Below, piece by piece: positions 1-60,088 of a stretch of 64,000 nt of DNA. The DNA lies in NCBI RefSeq assembly GCF_004010195.1, contig NC_057718.1:69144346-69208345 (forward strand), given 5' to 3'. A model generated the notes under the pieces. That model was not told the DNA's origin and made no database searches. It was given only the letters and a program-made list of their open reading frames with translations. Every line of letters starts with the position of its first letter. Positions within the stretch are counted from its first letter, which is position 1. Both the position numbers and the translations under genes were made by a program. The DNA is from Chiloscyllium plagiosum (Eukaryota).

Positions 1-733
1 GTTGGAGTAACCGGAATGCAAAGTACCGGGTTAATGGTAAGATTCTTGGTAGTGTAGATGAGCAGAGAGATCTCGGTGTCCAGGTACACAGATCCTTGAA
101 AGTTGCCACCCAGGTTGACAGGGTTGTTAAGAAGGCATACAGTGTTTTAGCTTTTATTAATAAGGGGATNNNNNNNNNNNNNNNNNNNNNNNNNNNNNNN
201 NNNNNNNNNNNNNNNNNNNNNNNNNNNNNNNNNNNNNNNNNNNNNNNNNNNNNNNNNNNNNNNNNNNNNNNNNNNNNNNNNNNNNNNNNTGCAGAGGAGA
301 TTTACTCGGATGTTGCCTGGTATGGAGGGAAGGTCTTACGAGGAAAAGCTGAGGGACTTGAGACTGTTTTCATCAGAGAGAAGAAGGTTGAGAGGTGACT
401 TAATAGAGACATATAAGATAATCAGAGGGTTAGATAGGGTGGACAGGGAGAGTCATTTTCCAAAAATGGTGACAGCGAGCACGAGGGGGCATAGCTTTAA
501 ATTGAGGGATGATAGATATAGGACAGATGTCAGAGGTAGTTTCTTTACTCAGACAGTAGTAAGGGTATGGAATGCTTTGCCTGCAACGGTAGTAGATTCA
601 TCAACTTTAAGTGCATTTAAGTCGTCATTGGACAAGCATATGGACGCACATGGAATAGTGTAGGTTAGATGGGCTTCAGATTGGTGTGACAGGTCGGCGC
701 AACATTCTATGTTCTATGTTATGTTCTATGTTA
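1..733 (+). mobile_element. CR1/HER1-type LINE, 3' fragment (end of RT plus 3' UTR), spans an assembly gap
   Basis: ORFs 96..398 and 310..663 give the CR1 ORF2 C-terminus (LFSSERRRLRGDLIETYKII...TRGHSFKL...FFTQTVVRVWNALP). Ends in a (TTCTATG)n tail at about 706-733. Confidence 0.93.
170..289. other. Assembly gap (120 N)
   Basis: Run of N. Confidence 1.
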
Positions 734-4934: not shown

Positions 4935-6970
4935 CAATATAGAACAGTAAATGGCCCTTAGGCCCACCAAGCCTGCACTGATTCCTAATCCTTATTTAGA
5001 TCTGCTACATATTGCCTATATGCAGTTTCTGTCCTTCTGTTCACCTATCTATCCAGATAAACCTTAAATGTTGCTAATATGCCTGCTTTCAACATCTCCA
5101 CTGGTAGTGCTTTCCAGGTACCCACCAGCCTTTGTGGGAGAGATTTTCCCTGCACTTCTCCCCTAAACTTTCCTCCTCTTATCTTGAACCTGGTATCCTC
5201 TTGTAGTTGACATTTCCAACCTGGGAAAAGCCTTCTGACTATCCACCCTATCAACTCCTCGCTCAGCTTCCGTCTTTCCAGTGAAGACAATCCGAGTTTA
5301 TCCAACCTCTCCTCATAACTAAAAGCCTCCAGACCAGGCAACATTCTGTTAAAACTTCCCTGCATCCTCTTCAAAGCTTCTACGTTCTACTGGTAGTGTG
5401 GTTACCAGAACTGCACACGATATTCCAAGTGTAGCCGTAAGTTTTACACAGCTGTAACGTAACTTGCCAGTTTTTATATTTGATGCCCCACATGATGAAG
5501 GTAAGCATGCTGTATGCCTTCTTGGCCACCTTAATCAACTGGTGTTGCTACTTTCAGGGATCTGTGGACCTGTATATCTAGATCCCTCAGTATGTCAATT
5601 TTCCCTAATGGTCTTACCATTTAATGTATAATTTGCACCTGAATTTGGTCATCCAAAATGTATCACCTTACATTTGTCAGATTAAACTCTGCCATTTCTC
5701 CATTTTGAAAAACACTTTTCCACCACTACTGTCTATGATCAAACAATGATATGGAGGCGTTGTGATGGACGGAGGTGAACAAAGTTAAAAATCACAACAC
5801 CAGGTTTATTTGGAAGTACTAGCTTTCAGAGCACTGCTACTTCATCAGCTCCCTGATAAAGGAGCAGCACTCCGAAGTCTCATTCTGCTGTTGAGATTTT
5901 TAATTCTTTAATCAAGCCAGTTTTGTATCAGTCTCGCCAACTCACCAGGGTCCCCTAAGATTCCATATTTTGTACCAGCCTGCCAGGAGGTACCTTATCA
6001 AATGTTTTACTAAAGTCCATGTAGACAATATCTATTGTTCTTTCCTCATCATTCATTCTTGTCATCTCCTCAAAAATCTCATTCAAGTTAATGAGACCTA
6101 AACTTATTTGCACAAACCTGAGCTGCTGATTGCTAACAAGTCCATTCACTTCCAAATGTGAATAAATCCAGTCTCTCAGTATTTTCCCCACCACTGACAT
6201 CAGGCTCACTGGCCGGTAATTACCTGGATTACCTGTTTCCTTTTTTAAACAAAGAAAGGCCATTGGCTATTCTCCAGTGCTCTGCAACCTCACCTGATAG
6301 CAAAGAGAATGCAAAGATATCTGTTAAGCCCCTAGCTATTTTCCTTGTTTGCTTCCCACAGTATCCTGTGATCAATCCCATTTAGCCCTGGGGGTGTATC
6401 AACCTTAATATATTTTAAGACACCCAACACTTCCTCCTTCATTATGTTGACTTGCCTGAGAGTATTCGCACACCTTTCCCAAACCTGAATGTCCCTCTCT
6501 TTGGTGAATACTGGTGTATAGCACTCATTAAGGATCTCACCCATTTCCTTTGGGTTCCACACATAACCTCCCTCCTTTTAACCTTGACTGGGCCTTCTCT
6601 TTCCTAAGCTACCCTCTTGCTTCTAATGTATGTATAAAATGCCTTGTTATTTTCCTTAACTCTGTTGACCAAGGAGAATTCATAACTCCTTTTTGAGCTC
6701 CTTCCTACTTTCTCTATATTCTTCACAGCTTTTGTCTACTTTTATTTGCCTAAATATTAGGTATGCTTCCTTTTCTTTTTGAAGAAGCTGATCATTTCTG
6801 CTGTTATCCAAAGTTCCCTAATCCTGCCATTCTTATCCTTCATTTTTACAGAAATGTGCCTGCCTAATTTGGTCAAAGTTGGCCCTCCCCCAGTTTAACA
6901 CCTTCATTGGAGATCTATTCTTGTCCTTATCCATAAGCATCCAAAAACTTACAAAATTATGGTCACCACA
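4935..6970 (-). mobile_element. CR1 LINE, degenerate ORF2 fragments, interrupted by a PLE-derived insert
   Basis: Minus ORFs contain NPGNYRPVSLMSVVGK, VYMDFSKTFDKVP and SYEERLDKLGL. Confidence 0.9.
5752..5878. mobile_element. PLE-derived short element with two degenerate back-to-back hammerhead motifs
   Basis: Family sequence AAAGTTAAAAATCAC...GGAAGTACTAGCTTTC. Minus motif 5818-5848; plus motif ctgataaaggagcagcactccgaag at 5853-5877. Confidence 0.75.
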
Positions 6971-16369: not shown

Positions 16370-19300
16370 ATGTATATCTCCCATAAACTTTTCCCCTCTC
16401 ACTTTGAACTTGTGACCCCTAGTAATTGAGTCCTCCACCCTGGGAAAATGTTTCTTGTTATCCACCCTGTCAACACCTCTCATGATTTTGTAGGCCTCAA
16501 TCAGGATCCCCCCCACCGCAACCCAACCTCCTTCTTTCCAATGAAAATAATCCTAATCTACTCTACCTCTCCTCACAGCTAGCACTTTCCATACCAGGCA
16601 ACATCCTAGTGAACCGCCTCTGCACCCTCTCCAAAGCAGCCATATCCTTTTGGTAATGTGGCAGCCAGAACTGTATGCAATATTCCAAATGTGGCTGGAC
16701 CAAAGTCTTATAGAACTGTAACATGACTTGCCAACTCTTCTACTCAATACCCCGTCCGATGAAGGACAGCATGCCGTATACCTTCTTGACCACTGTGACC
16801 TGTGATGCCACCTTCAGGGAGCAATGGACCTGAACACCCAGATATCTCTATACATCAATTTTCCCCAGGGTTTTTCCATTTACCATATAGTCACTCTGGA
16901 TTTGCATCTTCCAAAATGCATCACTCACCTTTGTCCAGATTGAAGTCCATCTGCCATTTCTCTGCCCAACTCTCCAATCTATCTATATTCTGCTGTATTC
17001 TCTGATAGTCCCCTTCACTCTCTGTTACTATACCAATCTTAGTGTCAGCTGCAAACTTGTAATGAAGCAACCTACACCTTCCTCCAAATCATTTATGTAT
17101 ATCACAAACAACAGTGGTCCCAGCATGGTCCCTATGGGATACCAGTGGTCACAGGTCTCCATTTTGAGAAGCTCCCTTCCATTACTACTCTGTCTCTTGT
17201 TGCCCAACCAGTTCTCTATCCATCTGGCTAGAACACCCATGCGACTTCACCTTCTGCATCTACCCTGGGGAACTTAATCAAATGCCTTACTAAAGTCCAT
17301 GTATATGACATATACATCCCTTCCCTCATCAATCAACTTTGTCACCTTTCAAAGAATTCTATTAGTTTTGTAAGACATGACCTTCCCTGCACAAAACCAT
17401 GCTGTCAATCACTGATAAGCCCATTTTCTTCTAAATGGGTATATATCCTATCCTTTAGTAGCTTCTCCAGTAGCTTCCCTACCACTGACGTCAGGCTCAC
17501 AGCTCTGTAATCCCTGGATTATCCCTGCTACCCTTCTTAAACAAGGGGACAACATTAGCAATTCTCCAATCCTCCAGGACCTCCCCCATTTTCAAGGATG
17601 CTGCAAAGATATCTGTTAAAGCCCCAACTATTTCTTCTCTCACTTCCCTCAGTAACCTGTTATAGACCCCATCCTTTACTTCCTCCCTCCTTATGCCGAC
17701 TTGACCAAGAGTAAGCAAAGACCTATCCCTAACCTCAACATCCGTCATGTCCCTCTCCTTGGTAAATACTGATGCAAAGTACTCATTAAGAATCTCACCC
17801 ATTTTCTATGACTTCACGCATATCTTTCCTCCCGTGTCCTTGAGTGGGCCAACCCTTTCCCTCGTTACCCTCTTCCTCCTTATATATGAATAAAAGGCTT
17901 TGGGGTTTTCCTTAAACCTGCTCGCTAAGGATATCTCATGACCCCTTTTAGCCATCTTAATTCCTCATTTAAGATTGATCCGACATTCCCAATATTCTTC
18001 CAAAGCTTCATCTGACTTCAGTCGCTTAGACCTTATGTATGCATCCTTTTTCCTCTTAGGTAGTCTCACAATTTCACTTGTCATCCATGGTTCCCTAATC
18101 TTGCCATTTCTATCACTCATTTTCACAGGAACATTTCTCTTCTGAACTCTAATCAATCTCTCTTTAAAAGCCTTACACATATCGAATGTGGATTTCCCTT
18201 CAAGCAGCTGCTCCTAATCTACATTCCCCAGCTCCTGCCAAATTTTGGAACAGTTGGCCTTCCCCCAATTTAACACTCTTCGTTTAGGACCACTCTCAAC
18301 TTTGCCCATTATTATCCTAAAACTTATGGAATTGTGATCACTATTCCCAAAGTAATCCCCCACTGAGACTTTAATTACCTGGCCGGGCTCATTTCCTAAC
18401 ACCAGGTCCAGTATGGCCCCTTGACGAGTTGGACCCTCCTGGATACTCATTACAAATTTTGCTCCATCCAATCCTCTAACACTAAGTGAATGCCAGTCAA
18501 TGTTGGGAAAATTAAAATCCCCTCTTTACCACTACTCTGCTACTCCTACATCTTTCTATGATCTCTCTACATATTTGTACCTCTATCTCACACTTGCTTT
18601 TGGGATGCCTGTAGTACAGCCCCAACATTGTTACCGCACCCTTCCTATTTCTGAACTCTTCCCATATTGCCTCACTGCTTGAGTCCTCCATATTGCCCTC
18701 CTTCGGCACTGCTGTGATATCTTCTTTGACCAGTAATGCAACTCCTCCACACCTTTTACCTCCCTCTCTATCACGCCTGAAGCATCGATATCCTGGGATA
18801 TTTAGTTGCCAATCATGCCCTTCCCTCAACCAAGTCTCAGTAATAGCAATAACATCATACTCCCAGGTACTATTCCAAGCCCTAAGTTCATCTGCCTTAC
18901 CTACTATACTTCTTCCATTAAAACAAATGCACCTCAGACCACCAGTCCCTCTGCGTTCATCTGCCACTTCCTGCCTATTCTTCCCCTAAGTCACACTAAC
19001 TTCATTACCTAAGTTAAAAATCACACAACATCAAGTTATAGTCCAACAGGTTTAATTGGAAGCACCCTAGCTTTTATCAGGAGTGGCGCTCCGAAAGCTA
19101 GTGTGCTTCCAATTAAACCTGTTGAACTATAACCTGGTGTTGTGTGATTTTTAACTTTGTATATCCCAGTCCAACACCGGCAACTCCAAATCATGTTCAT
19201 TATCTAATTCTTTACAGGCTTTAGTTACTAACTTCTTCCTGTCCACTAACCTCCTCATTTGGTTCCCATCCTCCTCCCCAACAGTGTTAGCAAAAGCACC

Positions 19301-22864: not shown

Positions 22865-24255
22865 CTCAAATCCCGAGAAGATTCTGCCCTTTATGTCTGT
22901 TTTTGCAAAGGAAGATACAAGAAATCTCTCAGAATTAGAGATCCAAGAGTTGAGGGAGAATAAGGAGTTGGAGGAAATTTATATGAATTTGAAGGTTGTA
23001 TGGGAGAAATTAATGGGGTTGAAAGTTGATTAGTCCCAGGTATCTGCATCCTAAAGGCTTGAAGGTGGTGCTATCAAGATAGTTGATGCTGTAAAGATTC
23101 TTCCAGATTGGAAGCTTGCATTGGTAACTGTCCAACTCCTGCCTATTTAGAAAGGACCAAGGGAAAACCAGACTGGTTAGCCTTACATCAATGGTAGGAA
23201 AAATGCTAGAATCTGTCACAAACGGTGTGACAAATGGGTACTTGGATAAAAGAAATGATCTGATTGGGCACATCATTGTGGATTTGCAAAGGGAAAATTG
23301 TGTTTGCCAAACCTATTGGAATTTATTGAATATGTCATTAAAAAATTGATAAAAGGAAGTTGAATTTTATTTTTTGATTTTCAGAAAGCTTTTGATAAGG
23401 CTCCCCACCAGCCCAACCCTGCCAAGAGGTTGTTCAACAAATTTAAAGCATATAGTACAGGAGGTAATATTGGATTGAGGACAGGCTAAGAGACAGGAAA
23501 CAGAGAATTGGAATAAATGGGTCATTCTCACATTGGCAGACTGAGACAAATGGGATATTGTAAGGATCAGTACTTTGACCCAGTTACTCACAATAAGTAA
23601 CAATGTAATATTACAAAATTTGCAGATGATACAAAGCTAACTTGGAATGTCCATTGTGAGGAAGATGTAAAATGTTTTCAAAAGTATTAAAAAGGCATAG
23701 TGATTGGGCAAGATCTTGGCAGATAGAGTACAAAATATCAAAAATACGGGGTTATCCACTTTGGTTGGAAGAGCAGATGTATAGAGTATTTCTTAAATGG
23801 TGAGAAGTTAGAAAGTACAAAGGAATTTATATTTCCTTGTCAATAAGTCACTGAAGCTAATATGCAGGTACAGCAAGTTATTAGGTAGGTTGATGGAATG
23901 TTAGCCTTCATCAGAAAATAATACTTCACTGTGAGTATTTATTTAATTGTATAAGAGCACAGTTAGATTGCATTTAGAGTACAGCTTGCATCATTGGTTT
24001 CCTTACATCAGGAAAGATATTATTGCCATGCAGGGATAGAACAAAGGTTTACCAGACTTGTTCCTAGGATAGCAGGATTATCCTATGAACATAGATTGGG
24101 CAAACTGAGGTTAACAAATTTTGATTATCAATGACATAAAAGGTTAAGAGAAGAGTGTGGGAAAAAGTCATTGAAGAGTTCAATCAGCCATGATTGTACT
24201 AAATAATGGATCAGACTTGACAGGCCGAATGGCCTACTCTACTTCTGATTTCCTA
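22865..24255 (+). mobile_element. Degenerate CR1 LINE ORF2
   Basis: Motifs DFQKAFDK, KFADDTKL and a CR1 3' UTR. Confidence 0.85.
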
Positions 24256-26249
24256 AAATAATGGCCAGTCAATCATCAGATTGAGGTACATTCTGGGATG
24301 TTATATTTTTGATACTCAGGGCCAATATAGACTAAATGACACAATTCTAAAGAGTGTGCAGAGTCAGGGAGACTTGGAGATTCTAATAAGGAGCTAAATG
24401 GAACCCACATCACTTAACAACCATCCCATAGTGGGTTGTGGTTTGGATACAGTGCTGCCACCAATCCTCCTCCTTCTGCTAGTCCAATGGGATGTTCAAT
24501 AGTCTGTGGTGGGAGATTGACCATGAATAAGTCTCAACAGAAGATGATTTAATCTTTCATAATAAGAAGAAGTTTATTACATCACAGCATATGTATATAG
24601 GTTACATAAATTCTTGGGCGTACTAACCATTACTAGTAGGAGGCATACAATACAAATAGGTGTCCAACAGAGTACAGAGTGCAACAAATTCTCCAACCAG
24701 AGATGTATGACATCATCAGATTGGGTGGAGCTCAGCATAGATCAATCATTGACTCTTTCAGAAGTGTTATAAAGCATATAGATCTTTACGGTGGTAGGGC
24801 ATATTTAAAGGAGTAGAAAAAAGAAGCTTACGGGGCATTTAAGCTTCAAAATAGAGGCTTTAAATAAAAAAGTAAGGAAACTGTTTGTAAAGCTCTGGTG
24901 AGATGACAGCTAGAGATTGGCTAAAATTTAGCTGTTGTAATGGGTGGCGCCCATCAATTACAGAACTGATGGGAAACCCTGCAAAACCATATCATCTCAA
25001 TGAGAGGCTTGAAACAATTTGGTAATCAGGAAATACCTAGACAACATTGAGCCTTTATTCATTCAAATGTCATTGAAAGCAGAAATCTCACCCTTACGAG
25101 CAGTCAGCTATTAAGATGCTGGGAGTTCTTGACCTGCATTCATCATTAGGAACAATCAGTGGAGGAAAGGCAGGAGCTGAGGGGAATGAATTTCCAGCAA
25201 AGAAATGGAGGCGGTTTCAAGTGCAAGAACAGAGCTTTGGCATTCAACAGCAATTCTCTTCCTGATGCTGTGAGCCTGAATTGGGCACTGAATTCCCATG
25301 ATTGAGGGAACCCACTGGCAAAGTTGTGACAGGCCAATGGGTGGTTTTTTGAAGGCATGAGAGAACTTTGTCAGGCTTGCTTAATTTTTCAAATGCCATT
25401 AGATTCTAGTGGACTGTCAGTAATTGGATTTAAGTAACCCATTATTAGTCTGATTCCCATCTTCCTGCGAGTGGGAGTTTCTGAATTCATCCTCTTCCCC
25501 CTCTCATTTGACAAGGAACACTTCTCTCCCATGTGATTCTCCAGGCCCACATATCAGGTTTGCATCCTCTAGCAAGCTCCACTAAATTACTCTGACTGTT
25601 CATTTCTGGTTACTACACTTTCTGAAATGATAGGGTCCTTGAGAGAGTTCTAAGAAATTTACCAGAATGGTAAAGTGAAGGAGTGAAGGAGTTTAGCTGG
25701 AGGTAACGTGGAGAGGCTGGAGTCGATTTTGCTTGGAGCAAAAGAGATTAGGGTGAGATTTTACAGAACATTATAAAATCATTACAGTTAGATGAGAAAA
25801 GATCTTCCCATTAGCTGATGGTTTTTAGCTTGGAGACATATTTCAGGTTTTGGACAAGAGGTGCATTGGAGATGAGATAAAGAATTATTTTACGAAATAA
25901 GGTATAATGACCTTGAGCTGACCTTGTACTTTTGACTAAGTGGGCGTTACATTAAGTTTGTTGCAGGGATTCTTGCCACAAGGTTGAGTGATTCCTATCA
26001 ATTTCATCAACTGTGAGTGGGAACTGCAATTAAGATGATGAAATTGATAGGAACCACTCAGCCTTCTGGCAAGAAAACATCTGATTTTCACCCTCTTGCT
26101 ATGCACTGTTTCCAGAAGAACTCGCCGTTCAGCCAGTATCCGCCTGAAAATGAGAATCCCTTGCATTTGTACCATCTTTGAAAGTCAGCAATGCAACTGG
26201 AGGAGTGCTCACATCTACAAGCAGCCATGTCAGACTTGGAGAGTGTGAG

Positions 26250-27060
26250 GAGAGGTGGCAGAGAACGTGAAATTGACCCTGTGTTTTTCCAGCAGTGACC
26301 TGGGAACTTTTGTGGATGGGTGGTCCACCAGTGATGTGTCATTCTCTTGAAGCGCAGGCAGAAGAAGCTATGTGACCAGTTTAGTAGGAAATTGCTACCC
26401 GGATCACTGCTGGCACAAGGGTTCAGAGGACTAGAATACAGTGTAGAGAGAAGGTCAATGATTTTCTCTGCTTTTCCAGGGTAAGTGAGACACTCTGTTC
26501 TCTGCTAATTCCCACTCACCCTGTCGCCACACCCACCTCCCACTAAAGTTCATGCTCTGACACCCCCTCTGTTGCTTGCAACACATAATAGAACATAGAA
26601 CATAGAAGAATACAGCGCAGTACAGGCCCTTCGGCCCTCGATGTTGCGCCGATCCAAGCCCACCTAACCTACACTAGCCCACTATCCTCCATATGCCTAT
26701 CCAATGCCCGCTTAAATGCCCATAATGAGGGAGAGTCCACCACTGCTACTGGCAGGGCATTCCATGAACTCACGACTCGCTGAGTAAAGAACCTACCCCT
26801 AAAATCTCATTATCTCGCTTGATCTCGTTATTGACCCTGTCATGCTTTAACATTACTAATTCTAAATGACCTCCCTAGTATATCCCCACTCCCTCAGAGC
26901 ACCTTAATGCCTTACTCCCACATTTACCAGATCTAACAGCTGTCTACCCACTTGCGTCGAACACATTACCCCCTTTTTGTCATTAGACGAAAAGGCACCC
27001 CATAAAAGGACAGAACAATGCAGGAGAGATGCATGGGGTGCCCGATATCTATGTCCTCAC
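26250..27060 (+). pseudogene. Harbinger-type Myb/SANT-like DNA-binding ORF remnant, two exons
   Basis: Exon 1 ends *EIATRITAGTRVQRTRIQCREKVNDFLCFSR|GTAAGT (26481). Acceptor at 26986, then EKAPHKRTE..GVPDIYVLTP. Stops and frameshifts present. Confidence 0.6.
26587..26803 (-). mobile_element. Young CR1 3' end with an (ATAGAAC)n tail, inside the Myb-remnant intron
   Basis: CpG-rich. Minus strand encodes FFTQRVVSSWNALP. Confidence 0.9.
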
Positions 27061-27225
27061 ACCTACCTCTTTGCTATCTCTGGAGAAGACTGGGACATAC
27101 ACCTGCCTTCTCACTGCCTCTGGAGAAGACTGGGACATACACCTGCCTCCTCACTGCCTCTGGAGAAGAGTGGGACATACAACTGCCTCCTTGCTGCCTC
27201 TAGAGAAGAGTGGGACATCTCCTGC
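27059..27225. repeat. 40-bp minisatellite, about 4 copies
   Basis: Unit tggagaagactgggacatacacctgcctyctcactgcctc starting at 27081, 27121, 27161 and 27201. Confidence 0.95.
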
Positions 27226-27819
27226 TAGGATGCAGAGGAATCCATGTCCCTCCAACCAAGGACCATTTGTCGCTCCACTGCAACTCACCAGGCAATGCAG
27301 GCTAAGGTCTGTACATATCCTTGACTAGTGACTATGTATGTCCAGAACAGCAACACTCCTACCCCACCCCTCCCAAATGGCATGATGGAGACAAAGGACT
27401 GTGTAATCTGCTCCCTTGAATTCAGAAGCATGGATCCACTCATCACCCCCACTCCCCACCCCCTGCACAACCACTCTATTTGGACACCTGATGGCGTCTG
27501 AAACCTTGGGTTGGAATGGAAGGCAGTACTTGACTAACAGTACCCCTGACTGTTAGTTCCCTTCATGGACTTCACTGAAGAATACTCTCCTAATAGTTTG
27601 GGACAAGGCTAACTGCTTGCTGCAAATGCACTGGGCTTGGCACAAACTCTGCAACAAAATGGTGCAGATGTGACACTGACATGGTACTCTGCCAAATGCA
27701 AAAAGTGTGAAACCCTGACTTGGGACTTCTGTGATGTGGAGGAGCTTGTGTTAGACTGGGGTGAACAAAGTTAAAAATTACACATCACCATATGATAGTC
27801 CAACAGGTTTATTTGGAAG

Positions 27820-27854
27820 TACTAGCTTTCGGAGTGCTGCTCCTTCATCAGATA
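27820..27854 (-). ncRNA. Minimal type-I hammerhead ribozyme motif
   Basis: UAU-CUGAUGA-A-GGAG cagca CUCC-GAA-AGCU-A-GUA. Confidence 0.7.
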
Positions 27855-28031
27855 GCTGTGGAGTAGGACCATAAGAGACAGAGTTTTTAGAAAAGTTTTG
27901 TGTCATGCAACTGAACTGATATATTGAACAAGCCTAGATTGCTGTCTAGGTTTGTTCGATACATCATTTCGGTTGTATAACACTGTAATCTTTTGCTATA
28001 AATTCTGTGCCTTATGGTCCAGCTCTACAAC

Positions 28032-28066
28032 CACCTGATGAAGGAGCAGCACTCCGAAAGCTAGTG
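28032..28066 (+). ncRNA. Minimal type-I hammerhead ribozyme motif (intact core)
   Basis: CAC-CUGAUGA-A-GGAG cagca CUCC-GAA-AGCU-A-GUG. Stem I CAC/GUG, stem II GGAG/CUCC, palindromic stem III AGCU, predicted cleavage after CUA. Confidence 0.8.
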
Positions 28067-29504
28067 CTTTCAATAAACCTGTTGGACTGTAGCCTGGTGT
28101 TGTGTGATTTTTAACTTTGGGACTGTTGAGCAGCATGGCCAGCGATTTGGTTCTGTGACTGTGCTAACTGACACTCCAAGACAGAGCAAGGCAAGGCATG
28201 CAAGCTATGGGCATATCGATAGGTACCAGGTCAATGCATACTAAGAAAGCAAATAATCTGCCCTGGATGACTGACTCATTCAGGCTGTGGGCCAAGTGCC
28301 TGATTTTCTTTGTTGATTGTTGATTTCTGGTTGCTGATATGCCATGTTATGCATGTCTGGATTTCCCAGGAGCACTGCTAGTACATTGGAGGGGTGTCAA
28401 GATGGTGGCAAATGTTGCTGAATTTCAGATGCCAATATCCACAAATGAAGGATGGTGCCCTAAGTTACTGTTTGCTTGTGAGTAACAGCGAAGCCATTCG
28501 GAGGAAGCGCTGAGCTGAACCCGGCAGGTACCCATGCTGGGTTTCCTTGATGGCTAATTTGTTGGGTGAGTTTGGTAAGATCAATAGCAGAATGATTACA
28601 AGATAAATTGGGCTTAAAAACAAGCTTAACAAGTATTAATCATGATCAATTGACAACTTGCTGCTTCCTGACGAGAATCTCACCAAGCTGCTTGGAAAAA
28701 TGTAAAGGTTGAAGCAGGATAATCTTGATTTCAGGATGAGTCTCGCCAATTCAGCCACACCTCTTTTTATAGCTCATGTTGCTTAGACTTGTAAGATTCC
28801 ACTCCTGGAATTGACTGCCCTCAATGGCAGTGGAAGTGGAAAAGATTATTGCTTTTAAACATAAATTGGATGAGCACTTTCACGACTGTGAGGATGGAGT
28901 GTGGGAATGGGACAGACTGGATTACACTAGAAAGCTGGTAATGGATTGAATAGCGTTCTCTGTTGCATAATGACTCAAAACTCCAATTTAATAATATCGC
29001 TGAAAATTTCACATCCTAACCTTTTCTGTTGTTGTAAAGTCTTCTTTTCTGAACCTTGTTGTTTTATTATTTGTAAATTTGTGCCTCTCACTGACTAGTG
29101 GAAATAGTCCCATAACCATTCAGAATTTTCAAACTCTCCTTTAGATGATCACTTTAACTTTCTCTTTTCTAGCTGAGAAGTTTAAACTTAGCTGAATGCA
29201 TTTGTTTGAATTGCGACTTGAATCATATATTTCACAGTCTATTTATTAAGTAATCTGAAAATGTTCTGAATTTTCCACTGCAAGTATCACAATATTCAGC
29301 AAGGAAACCCAGACATGATTCAAACAGACTGTCATGTCTTTTATCCTCCCAGGTACTATTACCTCAGGCCAATTTCCACATTATTTCAGTTGGATTTTTA
29401 TGTGGGTGAATTGCTCAAGCAGACAGAAAGTGACAACACATTTGTGCAGCTTTAAAAAGTAGGGAGGGAAACGTTTTTGACAAAGTAATATTTTTTAACT
29501 TCAG

Positions 29505-29608
29505 TCGAGACTGTTTTACCAAGTGAGGTATCTGAACTAATTGTAGAAAAATTCACGACGAGACGGCAGCACAAGTCCAACTGGAAGAGTGATTACAAGC
29601 TTTTTGAG
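29505..29608 (+). CDS. Candidate coding exon D (phase 1-0): (V)ETVLPSEVSELIVEKFTTRRQHKSNWKSDYKLFE
   Basis: Acceptor attttttaacttcag, donor GAG|gtattt, four CpGs, phase matches exon C. Caveat: it abuts or overlaps a Deu-SINE-like remnant. Confidence 0.35.
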
Positions 29609-30414
29609 GTATTTTAACCCCAGCTCATATTACCATTTCCTAGCCAAGATGTATTTTTTTACTAAGTCACATTGTGAGACCATGCTGATTTGTGCTTATG
29701 TTTCTTACATAAGAAGTGAATGACTACCCTTGTACCACAGAGCTGAGGCTAAAATACTTTCTCAGTGGAAGAGCCTGACATCCTGGGTCATCTTTATGAT
29801 GATGTGGCCTGGGAAACCTTTAGAGTTTTATGAATGCTGTTCCTAATTAAAAGCACAGAATTAGCCCTTAAATAATTCAAGCACTGTTTGACTCATGAGT
29901 TTGGTAAGGTTGAATATAACTCCGTTTCAGGGCTGACAGTGATTAGCTCACTAACTCCTGAATGAGAGGTCAGGATAGGTTCAGTCGTGCCAATGGTTGT
30001 AATTTGCAGAAGAGCTCTATTCCTCATCTCTCATATTGTTTTTTAATTCAACCAGTTACAGGGGCTTGTCAATTAAAGAAGAGCCTATTGCTAACAAATT
30101 AACAAGCAAAATATTGCAAGGAACATTAGCACATCAAATTAAAATTTTGTTTGGGTTACTGATGATGCACCTTAGCCCCTCAGATGTATGTACATCGTGG
30201 AAAACATCAAGTGTACCAGTGGACACCATGTGCTTCATCTTCACAGACACCTGGGTGCAAATGTGGCATCTAAGCAAAACAGATGAACCTCCCTGTGGCA
30301 CCTTGACCAGGCCTGGGGTTGTCCATAAGCAGGTTCTGATCTGCCTACTTCACTTCACACTTGGTGACAAAAGATCAGGGACGTGGTACTGCAGTGCAGC
30401 CAAACATTGAGAAA

Positions 30415-31108
30415 CTGTTTGGATGTGAATATAGGAGATATGATTAGTAAGTTTGCAGATGACACCAAAATAAAGTTAAAAATCACACAATAGTCTAACA
30501 GGTTTAATTGGAAGCACACTAGCTTTTGGAGCGACGCTCCTTCATCATCCGAATCATGACACCAAAATAGGTGGTGTAATGGACAGTAAAGAAGATTATT
30601 TCAGACTACAACAGGACCTTAATCAGATGGGCCAATGGGCTGAGGAGTAGCCGATGGAATTTAATTGGAAGATTTGAGTCATAACGAGAGGCTGAATAAG
30701 GTGGAGCTTTTGGCGATGGAGCATTAGAGGCTGAGGAATAACCTTACAGAAATTTATAAAATCATGAGGGGTTCAGACAGGGTGAATAGTCAAGGTCTTT
30801 TTCCTAGGGTGGGGAAGTCCAAAACTAGATGGCATAGGTTTAAAATGAGAGGGGAAAGATTTAAAAAGGACGTCAGGGGTTACATTTTCATGCAGAGGAT
30901 GGCGCATGCATGGAATGATCTGCCAGAGGAAGTGGTGGAGGTTGGTACAATTACAACATTTAAAGATATCTGGATGGGTATATGAATAGGAGGAGTTTAG
31001 AGGAATATGGACCAAATGTTGGCAAATGGGACTAGGTGAGGTTGGGATGTATGGTTGACGCGGACAAATTGGACCGAAGAGTCTGTTACTATGACTTTAT
31101 GACTGTAT
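30415..31108 (+). mobile_element. CR1/HER1 LINE fragment with an internal deletion
   Basis: SKFADDTKIGG, ORF 30764..30985 and a CR1 3' UTR. Confidence 0.9.
30473..30555 (-). mobile_element. 83-bp PLE-derived insert with a 14-bp TSD and degenerate hammerhead
   Basis: TSD atgacaccaaaata at 30459-30472 and 30556-30569. Minus strand UGAUGAAGGAGCGUCGCUCCAAAAGCUAGUG. Confidence 0.85.
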
Positions 31109-31158
31109 AACTAGTGAAACAGAGATTCCTCAGCTATTTTATTTCATTTTATCTTCAG

Positions 31159-31221
31159 CTACCATTGATTGGCATTCAGAACATTGCCAAACAATCCTTG
31201 ACTCTTCCTGTCAATGTCAAG
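31159..31221 (+). CDS. Candidate coding exon E (phase 0-0): LPLIGIQNIAKQSLTLPVNVK
   Basis: Strong acceptor ttttatttcattttatcttcag, moderate donor AAG|gtgatg. Confidence 0.22.
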
Positions 31222-31517
31222 GTGATGTCTGCTGTCTAACTGGACATTTTCCATCCATCTTGCACTCATAAGTCTTCAGCAGAACACTTGTCAACTGAGA
31301 CAACAAGTAAAATACTTACAATGCTAGAAATCCAAAATAAAAACAGAAATTGCTGGAGGTGCTGTAAAGGTCAGACTGCAAGATGATTGACATCGTCGTA
31401 TTATTCTTTTCTCCATGCATGCTGAATGATTTTATTTCCTACCAGCTGAGAGTTAGTGACAGTTTTAGGAAGATAGCTTGAAGGATCCCAAACTTTTTTT
31501 GAAGAAAGAATCTGCAG

Positions 31518-31790
31518 TTAGACTTTACAAACCTGGGGATAAATTTTGTACCTTTTGCGTGATGGAAGATGGTGGAAGAGGGTATAATTAGGGTGGGACG
31601 GGTCTTTGATTATGTTGGCTGTTTTCCCAAGGCAGTCAGAAGTGTAGACAGAGTCAATGGAAGGAAGGCTGGTTTTCGTAATGGACTGGGCTACATTCAC
31701 AACTCGCTATAATTTCTTGTGGTCTTGGACAAAACAGTTGTCATTCCAAACTGTGATGCATTCGAATGGATGCATCTATAAAAATTGTTA
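31518..31790 (-). mobile_element. Rex1/Babar-type LINE 3' fragment
   Basis: LPSIDSVYTSDCLGKTANIIKDPSHPNYTLFHHLPSRKRY, the typical DPSHP...LPSGRRY end of Rex1-like RTs. Confidence 0.75.
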
Positions 31791-32354
31791 AGAGACTTCT
31801 CAGTATCTCAGTACATGTGACAATAATGCATCAAATTAAATCTGATGCATCTTAATTAGAATGGTTTAGTCTCTCTCATTGGATCAGATAACACTCAAAT
31901 GTACCTGCAGGCTTTGCTATCAGCTTTGAAAATAGAGAAAATCCCCACCTTTACAACTAAAAATGGGGTCAGAGTCCTTGGGAATGGGTGCTCTCATGTT
32001 CTGTTTCACCTTCCTTCTCCAGAAGAATAGTCCATCAAAATTTGAGCCAATAATATGTCTTGTTTTGTCCATGTAATTGTAAGGACAGGAGTCCACTGAA
32101 TTAACATTGTGAATGTATTCAAACATTGTTTGCAATGACATCTTCATTTTAGAATAATTTTTCCACTCATTCAGATTGCTCATGCTTTTCACACAAACTT
32201 TAAATATTCTGATCAATATATTTATTGATATAAAACAACACAACTTATAAACCACTGCAAGTTTCTAATTCTAAGGGGAGTTTTAATTGTGAGAAGGTTT
32301 ATAAAATAGAACATCAGTTGGCCATTCCCTCCTTGAGATTCTGGGCAGCTGATA

Positions 32355-33685
32355 GCATGGATCTGACAAGGGAGTTGCAGAGGGAATGGTCTCTCTGAAA
32401 CGCTGATAGGGGTGGGGAAAGAAATGTCCCTGGTGGTAGGGTCTGTTTGTTGGTGGTGCAAGTGACAGAGGGTGAACGATGTGCATGGAGGTTGGTGGGG
32501 TGGAAGGTGAGGGTATTCTGTCCTTGTTTCATTTGGAGGAGTGGGGTTCAAGGGCGGAGGTGCGGGAAGTGGAGGTGATGCGCTGGAGGACATCATCAAC
32601 CACGTGAGAGGGGAAGATGCGGTCTTTGAAGAAGGAGGCCATCTGGGATTTTCTATGATGGAATTATCTATTCTCAATTCCTCCGTCTGTGCCCCATCTG
32701 TTCCCAGGATGACCAATTTCACCATAGAAAATCCCAGATGGCCACTGTCTAACTCCCTCATGAGATCCATGCCCTCCACCAGTCCTCACCCCTCTCCTGG
32801 CACCTTCTCCTGCCTCATCCTCTGCCTTTGGACCCTGTGACCACATGGGATTAGTGGAATTTCACCAGTTTCCTCATTTCCCTTCCCCCCACCTTATCCC
32901 AGTCCCAACCCTCCAACTTGGCACTGCCCTCTTGACCTGTCCATCGCCTTTCCCAGGAAGTTTTGCAGGAAGTGCAAAACTTGTGCCCCACACCTCCTCC
33001 CTCACCTCCGTCAAAGCCCCAAAGGATCCTTCCACATCAGATTAAAATTTACCTGTACCTTCAATAATGTCATCTTCTGCATCCGTTGCACCCGGTGGTC
33101 TCATCTACATCGGGGAGGCAGGGCGTCAACTTGTGGATTGTTTCAGAAAATACCTCTGGGACACCCGCACTAACCAACCCTACCACCCCACTTCAACTCC
33201 CCTTCCCACTCCACTGTGGACATGCAAGTCCTGGGTTACCTCTATCACCAAACCCCAATCACACGATGCCTGGAGGAAAAATGCCTCATCCTCTGCCTTG
33301 GGACCCTGTGACCACATGGGATTAGTGGAATTTCACCAGTTTCCTCATTTCCCTTCCCCCCACCTTATCCCAGTCCCAACCCTCCAACTTGGCACTGCCC
33401 TCTTGACCTGTCCATCGCCTTTCCCATCTATCCCCTTCATCCTCCTCTCCAACCTATCACTTTCTCCTCCACCTTCATCTACCTACTGCATTCCCAGCTG
33501 CCTTTCCCCCCAGCCCACGCCCCTCCCATTTATCCTTCAGTCCCCCGGTCCACAAGCCTCATCCTAATGAAGTGCTTATGCCTGAACTATCGATTCTCTT
33601 CCTCAGATGTTGCCTGACCTGCTGTGCTTTTCCAGCACCATACTCTTGACTCTGATCTCCAGCATCTGCAGTCCTCACTTTCTTC
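32355..33685 (+). mobile_element. Rearranged Penelope-like (Neptune-type) element with a GIY-YIG remnant and an inverted 5' part
   Basis: GLIYIGEAGRQLVDCFRKYL (ORF 33067..33567). The C-rich 3' region ends in a degenerate hammerhead at 33564. Segment 32355-32665 is inverted. Confidence 0.8.
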
Positions 33686-33753
33686 TTTAACACAGAATAA
33701 GGGCTACTGATTAAGGAATAGCATCCATAGGGACTTGTTTAGTTGAACAAAAC

Positions 33754-33886
33754 TATTCCCGATGAAGGCATTTTGCCCGAAACATTGATTTTCCTGCTCA
33801 TTGGATGCTGCCTGACCTGCTGTGCTTTTCCAGCACCACTCTAATCTAGACTCTGACCTCCAGCATTTGCAGTCCTCACTTTTGCC
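33754..33886 (+). mobile_element. 133-bp PLE-derived insert starting at a degenerate hammerhead, with a 14-bp TSD
   Basis: TSD tagttgaacaaaac at 33740-33753 and 33887-33900. Contains ccgatgaaggcattttgcccgaaacattg. Confidence 0.85.
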
Positions 33887-43874: not shown

Positions 43875-44202
43875 GTTTTGAGAAGGTTTGTAGCTCAGGT
43901 TGAGATTCTGGATGTAGGTTTGCTCGCTGAGCTGGAAGATTCATTTCCAGATGTTTCATCACCCTACTAGGTAATATCTTCAATGGGCCTCTGGACGAAG
44001 GACTGCTGATAATTCCTGCTCTCTATTTATATGTTTGATGTCAGGAGATGACATCACCAACCCAAAGAGACCCAAACATATAAATAGAGAGCAGGAATTA
44101 TCAGCAGTGCTTCGCCTGGAGGCCCACGGAAGATATTACCTAGTAGGGTGATGAAACGTCTGGAAATGAACCTTCCAGCTAGGTGAGCAAACCTACATCC
44201 AT
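43875..44202. mobile_element. PLE-derived inverted-repeat element with two degenerate hammerheads
   Basis: Arms at about 43911-44036 and 44073-44200. Motifs CCA-cggaaga-UAUUACC..GGUGAU-GAAACGUC-UGG (44124-44163 +) and its mirror (43947-43986 -). Confidence 0.8.
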
Positions 44203-45784: not shown

Positions 45785-45928
45785 AGGCACCCCCCCATTT
45801 ATCTCTCCACCCTGGAGGCTTCCTGCCTCTGTTCCTGATGAAGGGCTTTTGCCCAAAACTTTGATTTTCCTGTTCCTTGGATGCTGCCTGAACTGCTGTG
45901 CTTTTCCAGCACCACTCTGATCTAAACT
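45785..45928 (+). mobile_element. PLE-derived short insert with a near-intact hammerhead
   Basis: UUC-CUGAUGA-A-GGGC uuuu GCCC-aAAAC (45832-45860), where G>A is consistent with CpG decay. Confidence 0.75.
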
Positions 45929-46291
45929 CAAGAACTTCACAGTCCATCTTTTTCACTTCTATACTTGATCCTCCATCTCTCGGGTAAAGACAGATGTGAA
46001 CTATTCATGTAACACACTACCATGTCCTCTGGCTTCATGCACAGATTTCCCCCTTGGTCACTAATAGGCTCTACTCTTTACCTGATTATTCTTTCCCCCT
46101 TCAAATGCTTGTGGAATATTTTGGGATTCTCCCTAATTTTACCTGCCAGCATTTTCTCATGCAACCTCTTTGTTCTGCTAATTGTTTTCTTGAGAATTCC
46201 TTGCATGCTAGGCTCTCCGTTATTTTGCTCCTTTTGTACCTGTTATATGCCCCTTTTTTCCTTTTAATCCAATCCCAAATATTCCTAGATG

Positions 46292-47135
46292 TAGAATCAT
46301 GGAGTCAACACGGAAACAGGCCTATCGGTCCAACTTGTCCATGCCGATCAGATATCCCAACCCAATCTAGTCCCATCTGCCAGCACCTGGCCCATATCCC
46401 TCCAAACCCTTCCTATTCATATACCCATCCAAATGCCTTTTTAAATATTGCAGTTGAACCAGCCTCCACCACTTCCTTTGGCAACTCATTCTATACACAT
46501 AGCACCCTCTGCGTGAAAAGGTTGCCCTCAGGTCTCTTTTATATCTTTCCCCTCTCACCCTAAACCTATGCCTTCTAGTTCTGAACTCCCCCACTCCAGG
46601 GAAAAGATTATGTCTATTTACCTTATCCATGCCCGTCATGATTTTATAAATCTCTATAAGGCCATCCCTCAGCCTCTGACACGTGAGGGAAAACAACCCC
46701 AGCTTATTCAACCTCTTCCTGTAGTTCAAATCCTTCAACCCTGGCAACATCCTTGTGAATCTTTTCTGAACCCTTTCAAGTTTCACAACATCCTTCCGAT
46801 AGGAAGGAGACCAGAATTGCATGCAATATTCCAACAGTGGCCTAACCAATGTCCCGTACAGCCGCAAAATGACCTCCCAACTCCTGTACTCAATATTCTG
46901 ACCAATAATGGAAAGCATACCAAATGCCTTCTTCACTATCCTAACTACATGTGACTCCACTTTCAAGGAGCTATGAACCTGCACTCCAAAGTCTCTTTGT
47001 TCAACCACACTCCCTAGGACTTTACCATTACGTATATAAGTCCTGCTAAGATTTGCTTTCCCAAAATGCAGCACCTCGCATTTATCTAAATTAAACTCCA
47101 TCTGCCACTCCTCCATCCATTGGCCTAGCTGATCA
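46292..47135 (-). mobile_element. Younger CR1/HER1 3' fragment nested in the older CR1
   Basis: 258-aa open frame 46367..47143 (WQMEFNLDKCEVLHFG...RPLLEYCMQFWSP). Confidence 0.95.
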
Positions 47136-47661
47136 TCATCCATGGTTCTCTGGGCTTGATACTCTAAGCTTTACCCTAAAGGGAATATGGTGGACCTATA
47201 CACCCTGTGTCAGTACCTTTTGAATATTTCTGAGTGTTCTGTTGTAAATTTACCCTAACCTAGCTGTACCCAGTCTATCTTGGACAGATCCTGCCTTATT
47301 TTAATAAAACTCTATTCGTCCAATCCAAAACCTTTTTTTTCCAGGCCATCTTTCTTCTTTTCCATAAGGAACTTAAAATTTACAGATGTGTGGCTATCAC
47401 TACAATGCTCTCCCACTGTTGCCTTGAACACCTGTCTGACTTCATTCACCGTAACTGCATCCAGCTCTGCACCGTCCCTAGTAGAACTATCACCATGCTG
47501 ACAAAAAAAACTCTCCGTATACATTTCAAGAAATCTGTCCCCTCTAAACTCTTTATATTATGATTATCCCAATTATTATTTGGTGGTTGAAATCCCGTAA
47601 TATAATTCCCTATTAGTGTTAGACACGCTTCAGTGAATTGACTACAGTCAGTGACTACAAT

Positions 47662-52504: not shown

Positions 52505-52778
52505 GTTAAAAATCACACAACACCAGGTTATAGTCAACAGGTTTAATTGGAAGCACACTAGCTTTCGGAGCGACGCTCCTTCATCAGGTGATAGTGGAGG
52601 GCTCGATCGTAACACAGAATTTATAGCAAAAATGTATAGCAAGAATTTATACGATCTTCTTCAGGCTCATGCTCGAAATGTTCGATTCTCCTGCTCCTTG
52701 GATGCTGCCTGACCTGCTGCGCTTTTCCAGCAACACATTTTCAGCTCTGATCTCCAGCATCTGCAGTCCTCACTTTTT
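52505..52778. mobile_element. Two fused PLE-derived ends in opposite orientation
   Basis: Family-1 arm 52505-52635 (minus-strand hammerhead) and family-2 tail 52663-52778 (plus). Confidence 0.8.
52556..52590 (-). ncRNA. Minimal type-I hammerhead ribozyme motif (intact core)
   Basis: CAC-CUGAUGA-A-GGAGC guc GCUCC-GAA-AGCU-A-GUG, with CpGs retained. Confidence 0.82.
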
Positions 52779-52832
52779 CTTTTAGTTAAATTAATTTGGT
52801 TCAGAATCTACAGTTACCATTTTGGCTTGCAG

Positions 52833-55012: not shown

Positions 55013-55224
55013 AAATAAAAGCAAATTACTGCGGATGCTGGAATCTGAAACCAAAAGTGAAAATGCTGGAAAATCTCAGCAGGTCTGGCAGCATCTGTAA
55101 GGAGAGAAAAGAGCTGACGTAAGCTTTGACAAAGGGTCAGTTATACTCGAAACGTCAGCTCTTTCTCTCCTTACAGATGCTGCCAGACCTGCTGAGATTT
55201 TCCAGCATTTTCTCTTTTGCTAGA
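55013..55224. mobile_element. Palindromic PLE-derived mini-element with a 10-bp TSD and variant hammerhead
   Basis: TSD ctattccaat at 55003-55012 and 55225-55234. Arms 55053-55120 and 55152-55219. Motif GCU-uUGACaA-AGGGU..ACUC-GAAACGUC-AGC. Confidence 0.85.
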
Positions 55225-57592: not shown

Positions 57593-57828
57593 TAAAGGCA
57601 AAACATTGCAGATGCTGGAAATCTGAAATAAACACAGGGAATGCTGGAGAGGTTCAGCAGGTCTGGAAGCATCTATGGAGAGAGAAACAGAAATGTTTTG
57701 AGACCGTCAAAACTCTTCTTCAGAACTTCTGAAGCAGAGTCATGCCAGTCTCAAAATGTTATCCTTATTTTTCTCTCTCAACAGATACTGCCAGACCTGC
57801 TGAGTTTCTCCCACATTCTCCATGTCTG
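57593..57828. mobile_element. Older palindromic PLE-derived mini-element
   Basis: Same architecture as 55013-55224. Degenerate core ctgaagcagagtc...gtctcaaaatgtt near 57728. Confidence 0.7.
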
Positions 57829-59109: not shown

Positions 59110-60088
59110 ATTCAGTTACTAGTGGTGTACCGTAAGGATCTATTTTTGGTCCACGGTTGTTTGTCATTTTTATAAACAACCTGGATAAGGGCGTAGAAGG
59201 ATGGGTTAGTAAATTTGTGAATGCCACTAAGGTCAGTATAGTTGTGGACAGTGCTGAAGGATGTTGTAGGTTACAGAGGAACATAGATAAACTGCAGAGC
59301 TGGGCTGAGAGATGGCAAATGGAGTTTGATACAGAAAAGTGTGAGATTATTCACTTTGGAACGAGTAACAGGAATGCAGAATACTGGGCGAATGGCAAGA
59401 TTCTTGGTAGTGTAGATGAGCACAGAGATCTTGGTGTCCATGTACATAGATCCCTCAAAGTTGCCACTCACGTTGATAGGGCTGTTAAGAAGGCGTATGG
59501 TGTGTTAGCTTTTATTAGTACAGGGATTGAGTCTCGGAACCATGAGGTCATGCTGCAGCTGGACAAAACTCTGGTGCGGCCACACTTGGAGCATTGCGTG
59601 CAATTTTGGTCACCACATTATAGGAAGGATTTTGGAAAGGGTTCAGAGAAGATTTACGAGGATGTTGCCTGTTATGCAGGGAAGGTCTTACAGGGAAAGG
59701 TTGAGGGACCTGAGGCTGTTTTTGTTAGAGAGAAGGAGCTTGAGAAGTGACTTAATTGAGACATATAAGATAATTAGAGGGTTAGATAGGGTGGATAGTG
59801 AGATCCTTCTTCCTCCAATGGTGATGGCTAGCACAGGAGGGAATAGCTTCAAACTGAGGGGTCATAGATACAGGACAGGAAGTTTCTTTACTCAGAGAGT
59901 AGTAGGGGCGTGGAAGGCACTGCCTGCAATAGGTGTAGACTCGCCAACTTTATGGGCATTTAAATAGTCATTGGATAGACATATGGTCGAGAATGGTGTA
60001 GGTTAAATGGGCTTCAGGCTGGTTTTGCAGGGTGGCACAAAATCGAGGGCTGAAGGACCTGTACTGCACTGTAATATTCTACGTTCGA
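59110..60088 (+). mobile_element. CR1/HER1 LINE RT/3' fragment, same subfamily as 1-733
   Basis: ORFs 59157..59750 and 59527..59967. Colinear with 1-700. Confidence 0.95.

Follow-up and report, generated by a model that had tools for sequence, protein, structure and literature searches.

The sequence CAC-CUGAUGA-A-GGAG(CAGCA)CUCC-GAA-AGCU-A-GUG at 28032-28066 of the forward strand is very probably a minimal hammerhead ribozyme from the end repeat of a Penelope-like retrotransposon (PLE) that is present in very high numbers. It lies within an old fold-back insertion of 354 nt (27766-28119) that carries an antisense twin of the motif, and since base pairing between the two is predicted, cleavage by this copy is unlikely. 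All positions are those of the window, the whole stretch of 64 kb that was analyzed. We observe the motif itself, the two inverted arms around it with a tail on one side only, its copies in very large numbers through the genome, and, in other copies, the same end sequence linked to an open reading frame (ORF) of reverse transcriptase (RT) and GIY-YIG type.

All the conserved core positions (CUGANGA, GAA-A and U-H) are present, stems I and II are able to pair, an extra base precedes the G10.1-C11.1 pair, and the palindromic stem III region is AGCU (Table 1). The core, stems and palindrome are just as the initial annotation of this DNA had given them, and they stand well above chance. A descriptor that required the core together with a stem II of 4 bp and a stem I of 3 bp, with the palindrome not requested, gave three matches in the 64-kb window (+28032, -27854 and -52590), and in 100 Markov-1 control sequences the mean was 0.01 matches with a maximum of 1. 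A scan with type-I hammerhead models had been proposed; an Rfam scan of 24000-32000 gave 18 matches at E<=10, with the hammerhead families absent among them. A hairpin-ribozyme match at 28483-28526 was set aside as chance, since it scores 18 bits where the cut-off is 65 (E 9.9).

Table 1. Features of the fold-back insertion and of the hammerhead motif within it.
Feature	Position	Strand	Basis or remark
Minimal type-I hammerhead motif	28032..28066	+	Right arm of fold-back; predicted cut 28063/28064
Stem I strands CAC / GTG	28032-34 / 28064-66	+	Sequence
Core CTGATGA, A, then GAA after CTCC	28035-41, 28042	+	Sequence
Stem II GGAG / CTCC, loop CAGCA	28043-46 / 28052-55	+	Sequence
Palindrome AGCT, then A	28059-28062, 28063	+	Sequence
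Off-pathway hairpin GAAAGC/GCUUUC over core GAAA	28056..28071	+	Predicted, 6 bp, P(unpaired) 0.02
AATAAA poly(A) signal, 8 nt past cut site	28072..28077	+	GU/U-rich stretch 28096-28112 follows; use seen in other copies only
Right arm: 5'-truncated PLE end (pseudo-LTR), no tail	27945..28119	+	78-90% identity to ends of ORF-bearing L010, L016, L054, L060
Left arm: copy inverted and 5'-truncated, 5' end extending ~7 nt further	27766..27944	-	82% identity to right arm
Second hammerhead motif, left arm, antisense to first, stem I UAU/GUA	27820..27854	-	Sequence, descriptor
AATAAA poly(A) signal, left arm	27808..27813	-	Reads of other copies aligned here end in poly(A) at 27795
AC-rich tail, ~33 nt, left arm only	27733..27765	-	Tail-like sequence in 41/99 copies by rough pattern
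Possible degraded target-site duplication, left copy	27720..27732		10 letters match 28117-28126 with a 3-nt gap; by eye
Possible degraded target-site duplication, right copy	28117..28126		Overlaps element end by 3 nt; by eye

The motif belongs to a large family. In the 3.56-Gb assembly the exact 35-mer occurs 501 times, a pattern of the flanks only finds 8,610 family copies, and the full core with four stem II pairs and AGCUAG has 14,556 matches; the reversed controls gave 0 in each case. A second hammerhead repeat family, CUGA(A/U)GA-A-GGGC(N4)GCCC-GAA-ACGU-C, has 80,312 exact pattern matches in the genome (L181-L190). Here stem II is GGGC/GCCC, stem I is AUC/GAU or UUC/GAA and the palindrome is ACGU. 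It is likely another PLE family, judging from weak ORF matches in two of ten loci. Decayed copies of it lie in the window at 33560-33883, 45833-45929 and 52670-52782. With at least 14,556 core-intact copies of the first family and 80,312 matches to the second, any single locus carries little weight.

These counts bear on whether the motif could be a chance look-alike in a repeat and not a hammerhead by descent. The absence of an Rfam hammerhead match would fit that reading, as would the weak covariation within the family, where three of eight pairs have double changes and 67/500 shuffles equal this. The covariation score itself is matched by 2/500 shuffles, and RNAalifold on 45 copies (-2.7 kcal/mol) gives neither the hammerhead nor a convincing alternative. 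Against it stand the descriptor controls, the second family, which keeps the core with other stems and another palindrome, the appearance of a third architecture, and the palindromic stem III, present though not requested in 93% of 112 descriptor matches in a sample enriched for this family. Exchange of stems between families with the core kept is better evidence for a hammerhead by descent than covariation within one family. We regard the look-alike as largely refuted, with next to no probability left to it.

Longer copies of the family extend 5' into an ORF. A 130-aa piece of this ORF gave 29,031 candidates, of which 150 were scored. L054 has an open frame of 597 aa that matches RVT_1 (E=1e-7) and contains the motifs GTAMG, YIDDIF, CHGRRCKTC, VVYLI-C and YIGET, with the hammerhead ~280 nt downstream of the frame. 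The hammerhead-bearing end sequence is found 3' of the RT ORF in L054, L060 and L057. In L054 CHGRRCKTC provides a CX4CxxC linker, of the CX2-5CxxC type, between the RT and the endonuclease (EN). A GIY-YIG endonuclease after the RT is supported by the VVYLI-C...YIGET motifs and by the atlas neighbors of the L060 ORF (0.96-0.97), which carry PF26215 in 31-98% of members and, in three of the top four clusters, PF01541 (GIY-YIG) in 12-32% of members. Pfam called GIY-YIG on none of the ORFs tested, and a PDB search with the family ORF returned nothing useful. Going by its sequence motifs, the family is a canonical C-terminal-EN PLE with a Neptune/Nematis-type linker, a clade placement made by motif alone and not from a tree. 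The initial annotation had assigned the motif to the type-I minimal hammerheads of PLEs with a palindromic stem III, and the family ends, the RT and GIY-YIG motifs and the available portion of PMC4209133 bear this out. Further pieces of the family are present in the window at 5780-5876, 19008-19193, 30469-30547 and 52505-52631. Those at 19008-19193 and 5780-5876 are very short fold-backs in which the junction lies inside the hammerhead and no arm is intact.

The insertion at 27766-28119 consists of two inverted arms that are 82% identical to each other, and the best paralogues are ~90% identical. At this locus tblastn detects no ORF remnant, a tandem pseudo-LTR is absent, and no tandem array covers the element. 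A head-to-head partner within 1.6 kb is found at 34/90 family loci and a same-strand partner at 9/90. In 46 head-to-head pairs the arms share 77% of subfamily letters, compared with 58% for random pairs, and the same variant of the poly(A) signal is common to both arms in 38/41 pairs where a fraction of 0.51 is expected. The sharing of subfamily letters indicates that a single template or subfamily usually supplied both arms, and rules out unrelated templates as their usual source. Priming of the fold-back on a natural hairpin was also ruled out, since no such hairpin occurs upstream of the junction in the family sequence. Positions 28030 and 28032 differ from their counterparts 27856 and 27854 in the other arm, and these are tightly linked family variants (9/0/5/85, p ~1e-9). 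Origin from a single template does not explain these linked differences well; they may reflect two templates or gene conversion.

We suggest that the protein of the element reverse-transcribed an RNA from its 3' end, stopping after ~175 nt, and that the inverted second copy would then have been made from the same or a near-identical template. Because the insert extends 55 nt past the cut site, that template was presumably uncut both at the hammerhead and at the poly(A) site. The ribozyme would be selected in active master elements, where it may cleave only as an AGCU dimer or with the element protein, and inserted copies would decay afterwards.

According to the initial annotation, the motif would be in sense orientation inside an intron if the + strand were a host pre-mRNA. 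The palindromic nature of the insertion means that one hammerhead is in the sense orientation whichever strand is read. The initial annotation had pointed out the sister copy at 27820-27854 and its UAU/GUA stem I, correctly, omitting that it lies on the minus strand. The change in stem I had been described as preserving pairing. This is so for the outer pair, C-G to U-A, for which the evidence is weak (the change co-occurs in 4/99 copies, p=0.013, ranking sixth among 231 column pairs), and the inner C to U leaves only a wobble.

We have examined the likely fate of the RNA by equilibrium folding at 37 °C, a model that takes no account of Mg2+, proteins, ADAR editing and tertiary contacts. The fold of 27766-28119 has an energy of -228 kcal/mol (z=-25.6, with 0/100 shuffles as good). 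When the palindrome is folded as a whole, 32 of the motif's 35 bases are predicted to pair with those of the sister (P>=0.99). Stems I and II drop to P=0 whichever strand is folded, and on the + strand the hammerhead fold could be imposed only at a cost of 56.6 kcal/mol. On either strand the antisense arm would be made first, and the layout suggests that read-through RNA zips into a hairpin of ~170 bp. Whichever way the locus is read through, the ribozyme is expected to end up buried in double-stranded RNA. Cleavage of PLE minimal hammerheads as dimers through the palindromic stem III had been cited as background; the sister, being antisense, cannot be such a partner and is predicted to block folding, so that the nearby inverted twin is a blocker and not a dimer partner. 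A dimer needs a partner of the same sense, and no other descriptor-intact hammerhead lies on the + strand within the 64-kb window.

The 35-mer in isolation is predicted to form stems I and II (P 0.83-0.98). With its natural context of -30/+55 nt and without the sister, stem I falls to P=0 and the GAAA is paired, and stem I is likewise at P=0 in 46/46 core-intact natural copies folded with their flanks. The variant that forms the hairpin at 28056-28071 is found in 5/211 copies, the common variant in 94/211. The suggestion that 28032-28066 might still self-cleave is therefore not supported by the modeling, which predicts burial in double-stranded RNA and a hairpin over the GAAA. In the portion of PMC4209133 available, single minimal hammerheads gave no cleavage in the assay and dimers cleaved poorly in vitro. 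The corresponding portion of PMC11167929 describes a PLE hammerhead of Anolis that cleaves only with protein, cleavage not being needed for insertion and uncut RNA being the main template. The published assays and the folding agree in direction.

We looked for RNA from the locus in run X19, a fragmented polyA library that is unable to show a ribozyme cut. In a sample of ~2 in 100 of this polyA single-cell run there are no reads on the unique flanks 26871-27437 and 28572-29138. A total of 780 reads aligned, and since 97% of them continue in a manner unlike the window sequence, they come from other copies. The ends of the aligned reads do not pile up anywhere, and no splice joint is present among those listed from the X19 reads. 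Contigs from X1, which we only guess to be RNA, reach some of the unique bins with shallow coverage.

A working ribozyme would require that an RNA started inside the palindrome, for instance at a promoter of the element, lacked the antisense arm, and cleaved after CUA by trans-pairing with a second RNA of the family through AGCU or with the element protein. All the core bases, G10.1-C11.1 and the palindrome are there for it, the isolated 35-mer is predicted to fold as a hammerhead, and RNA of the family is present in the polyA library, so partners could exist; promoters in PLE pseudo-LTRs are described in the available part of PMC6765202. This is offset by the stem I probability of 0 in the natural context, the copy-specific 6-bp hairpin predicted to pair the GAAA, the poor in vitro cleavage by dimers of such ribozymes in what is available of PMC4209133, and the lack of X19 reads on the unique flanks, even though only ~2 in 100 of the run was sampled. 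We consider it quite improbable, and prefer the reading of an insertion that is not cleaved.

The family was then compared using 99 copies picked by their flanks only, corresponding to 90 loci from the first 100 of the 8,610 matches, all on contig C1. The core is kept in 50/99 copies, and the core, stems and palindrome together in 35/99. The initial annotation had implied that this copy is special; as 35/99 are equally intact, selection is not needed for the intactness of 28032-28066. An intact-looking core in a young-enough repeat requires none. The motif had moreover been called intact, which holds for the core, the four stem II pairs and the palindrome but not for a fifth stem II pair, C-G in 70/99 copies (the commonest state) and a broken C.A here. 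With this pair lost and a rare downstream variant forming the hairpin over GAAA, the copy is not pristine. Its CUA triplet, said to be less common, is the norm within the family (A17 in 91/99 copies); a literature search mainly outside subscription journals found nothing on point on CUA triplet rates.

The palindrome pairs are kept in most copies, A-U in 91/99 and G-C in 92/99, and the catalytic G12, which lies in a CpG, is altered in 23/99. Conservation of the core relative to its flanks had been put forward as a refuting test. In the 83/99 copies in register, the 10 non-CpG core columns are less varied than the downstream flank (30/830, 3.6%, against 159/2324, 6.8%, changed; p=0.0006), but the difference is gone when G12 is added (5.7% against 6.8%, p=0.27). 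The core is kept no better than other non-CpG motif columns (p 0.2-0.57).

A poly(A) signal lies beside the cut site in this family, and AATAAA and ATTAAA are the two main poly(A) signals. One or other hexamer is present in 171/180 readable copies (31/211 were unreadable), with AATAAA in 126 and ATTAAA in 75 of 211. On the left arm, 53 X19 reads terminate in poly(T) at 27795, which is 12 nt beyond AATAAA. Two groups of reads, of 42 and 23, could each be assigned to one genomic copy (L191 and L192), and from read lengths we infer that these are the poly(T) reads. Neither copy is A-rich after the poly(A) site, which makes true polyadenylation the likely source. The RNA of at least two other copies, L191 and L192, thus uses a poly(A) signal located 8-9 nt beyond the cut site. 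In the genome sequence neither of them has stem II (2 of 157 motif matches). We rejected the idea that polyadenylated RNAs come mainly from ribozyme-dead copies, because the 97% likeness filter explains the lack of stem II. It passes 22/99 full-length copies over 34 nt, 1/99 over 45 nt and 0/99 over 57 nt, so L191 and L192 say nothing on cleavage.

The hammerhead and the poly(A) signal could together be a single 3'-end switch. Cutting would take away the signal and destroy the mRNA, polyadenylation would yield the mRNA, and RNA that reads through to the tail would serve as template for retrotransposition. The main variant at the signal exchanges AATAAA for ATTAAA, which suggests that it is under selection, but we hold the switch to be unlikely. 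If it were true, tens of thousands of cassettes could give host RNAs ribozyme-gated 3' ends, and the fold-back insertion would be a built-in off switch. A poly(A) signal in use beside the cut site allows a simple reporter test of this one idea. Among mostly non-subscription papers we found nothing on point concerning poly(A) signals beside PLE hammerheads.

A host exon was sought in the window by a crude exon scan and by Pfam searches with the unmasked ORFs of >=52 aa (180 in all), an approach that misses shorter exons. None was found, and Pfam gave only sub-threshold matches. A Steroid_dh match at 905-1105 was rejected as a host exon, its translation being unlike one. The host might have retained the insertion for regulation within an intron or UTR, as ribozyme, poly(A) signal or double-stranded RNA hairpin. 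AATAAA on both strands, the strong hairpin and the poly(A) ends supplied by two other copies are in keeping with such a role. It is made very improbable by the 35/99 copies that are as intact with selection unneeded, by paralogues at ~90% and arms at 82% identity as in an old neutral copy, and by the failure to find a host exon among the 180 ORFs.

Several other repeats occupy the window. The 293-nt palindrome at 43909-44201 belongs to another repeat family; its hammerhead-like cores are decayed, its stem II is longer, and several of the fetched loci contain related copies. At 25970-26075 a hairpin with 43-nt arms that are 91% complementary and a 20-nt loop has sub-threshold Rfam miRNA matches and is unmatched in the fetched loci; it may be what is left of a MITE, or else a miRNA-like hairpin. 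Two more palindromic repeats, from a different family and with arms 75-86% identical, lie at 55052-55219 and 57639-57818. A tandem repeat with a 40-bp unit (3.7 copies, 91% matches) is located at 27078-27225, and 32811-32955 and 33282-33426 form a direct duplication of 145 nt with 99% identity. The open frames 46367-47170 (-), 59136-59967 (+) and 151-705 (+) resemble decayed LINE reverse transcriptase ends, which we take to be CR1-like.

Taken as a whole, 28032-28066 is a real minimal hammerhead of the kind described in 2014, probably silent in an ordinary fold-back insertion. As far as the available portion goes, it resembles the metazoan PLE minimal hammerheads of Cervera & De la Pena (2014, PMC4209133) in its type-I topology and full core, the one extra base between A9 and G10.1, the G10.1-C11.1 pair, the palindromic 15.1-16.1 region, the thousands of dispersed truncated copies and the opposite-strand pairs, which there are 100-700 bp apart. 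It differs from the Schistosoma motifs in that source in having a stem I of 3 bp rather than 4-5 and a stem II of 4-5 bp rather than 7-8. Sharks are not named in the main text as available, and its supplementary alignments may list shark motifs. In a search of chiefly non-subscription papers we found nothing on point on shark PLE hammerheads.

The insertion is similar to the Neptune/Nematis-type units in the part of Craig et al. (2021, PMC8557442) available, in its 5' truncation, its adjacent inverted truncated copy and its one-sided tail of 30-40 nt, and the longer copies share the RT, CX2-5CxxC linker and GIY-YIG motifs; unlike those units, 27766-28119 has neither an ORF remnant nor a tandem pseudo-LTR. 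By this analogy, canonical C-terminal-EN PLEs usually insert in this form, an inverted truncated copy bearing a tail on one side only. The function of PLE hammerheads is still an open question in that portion of the source. Likeness extends to PAc / Poseidon_Ac of Anolis (Frangieh et al. 2024, PMC11167929, as available), which has a hammerhead upstream of an AC-rich end, two end points, with and without tail, and uncut RNA as template, as would be the case here. In contrast to Poseidon there, a Cys linker is present here, and protein-assisted cleavage is shown for Anolis. Finally, the non-LTR retrozymes in the available part of bioRxiv 10.64898/2026.07.22.740005 are also non-coding, with a type-I hammerhead and an origin in PLE pseudo-LTRs, and one chondrichthyan genome is reported among them; they are head-to-tail tandems with a hammerhead per unit, whereas the present locus is head-to-head.
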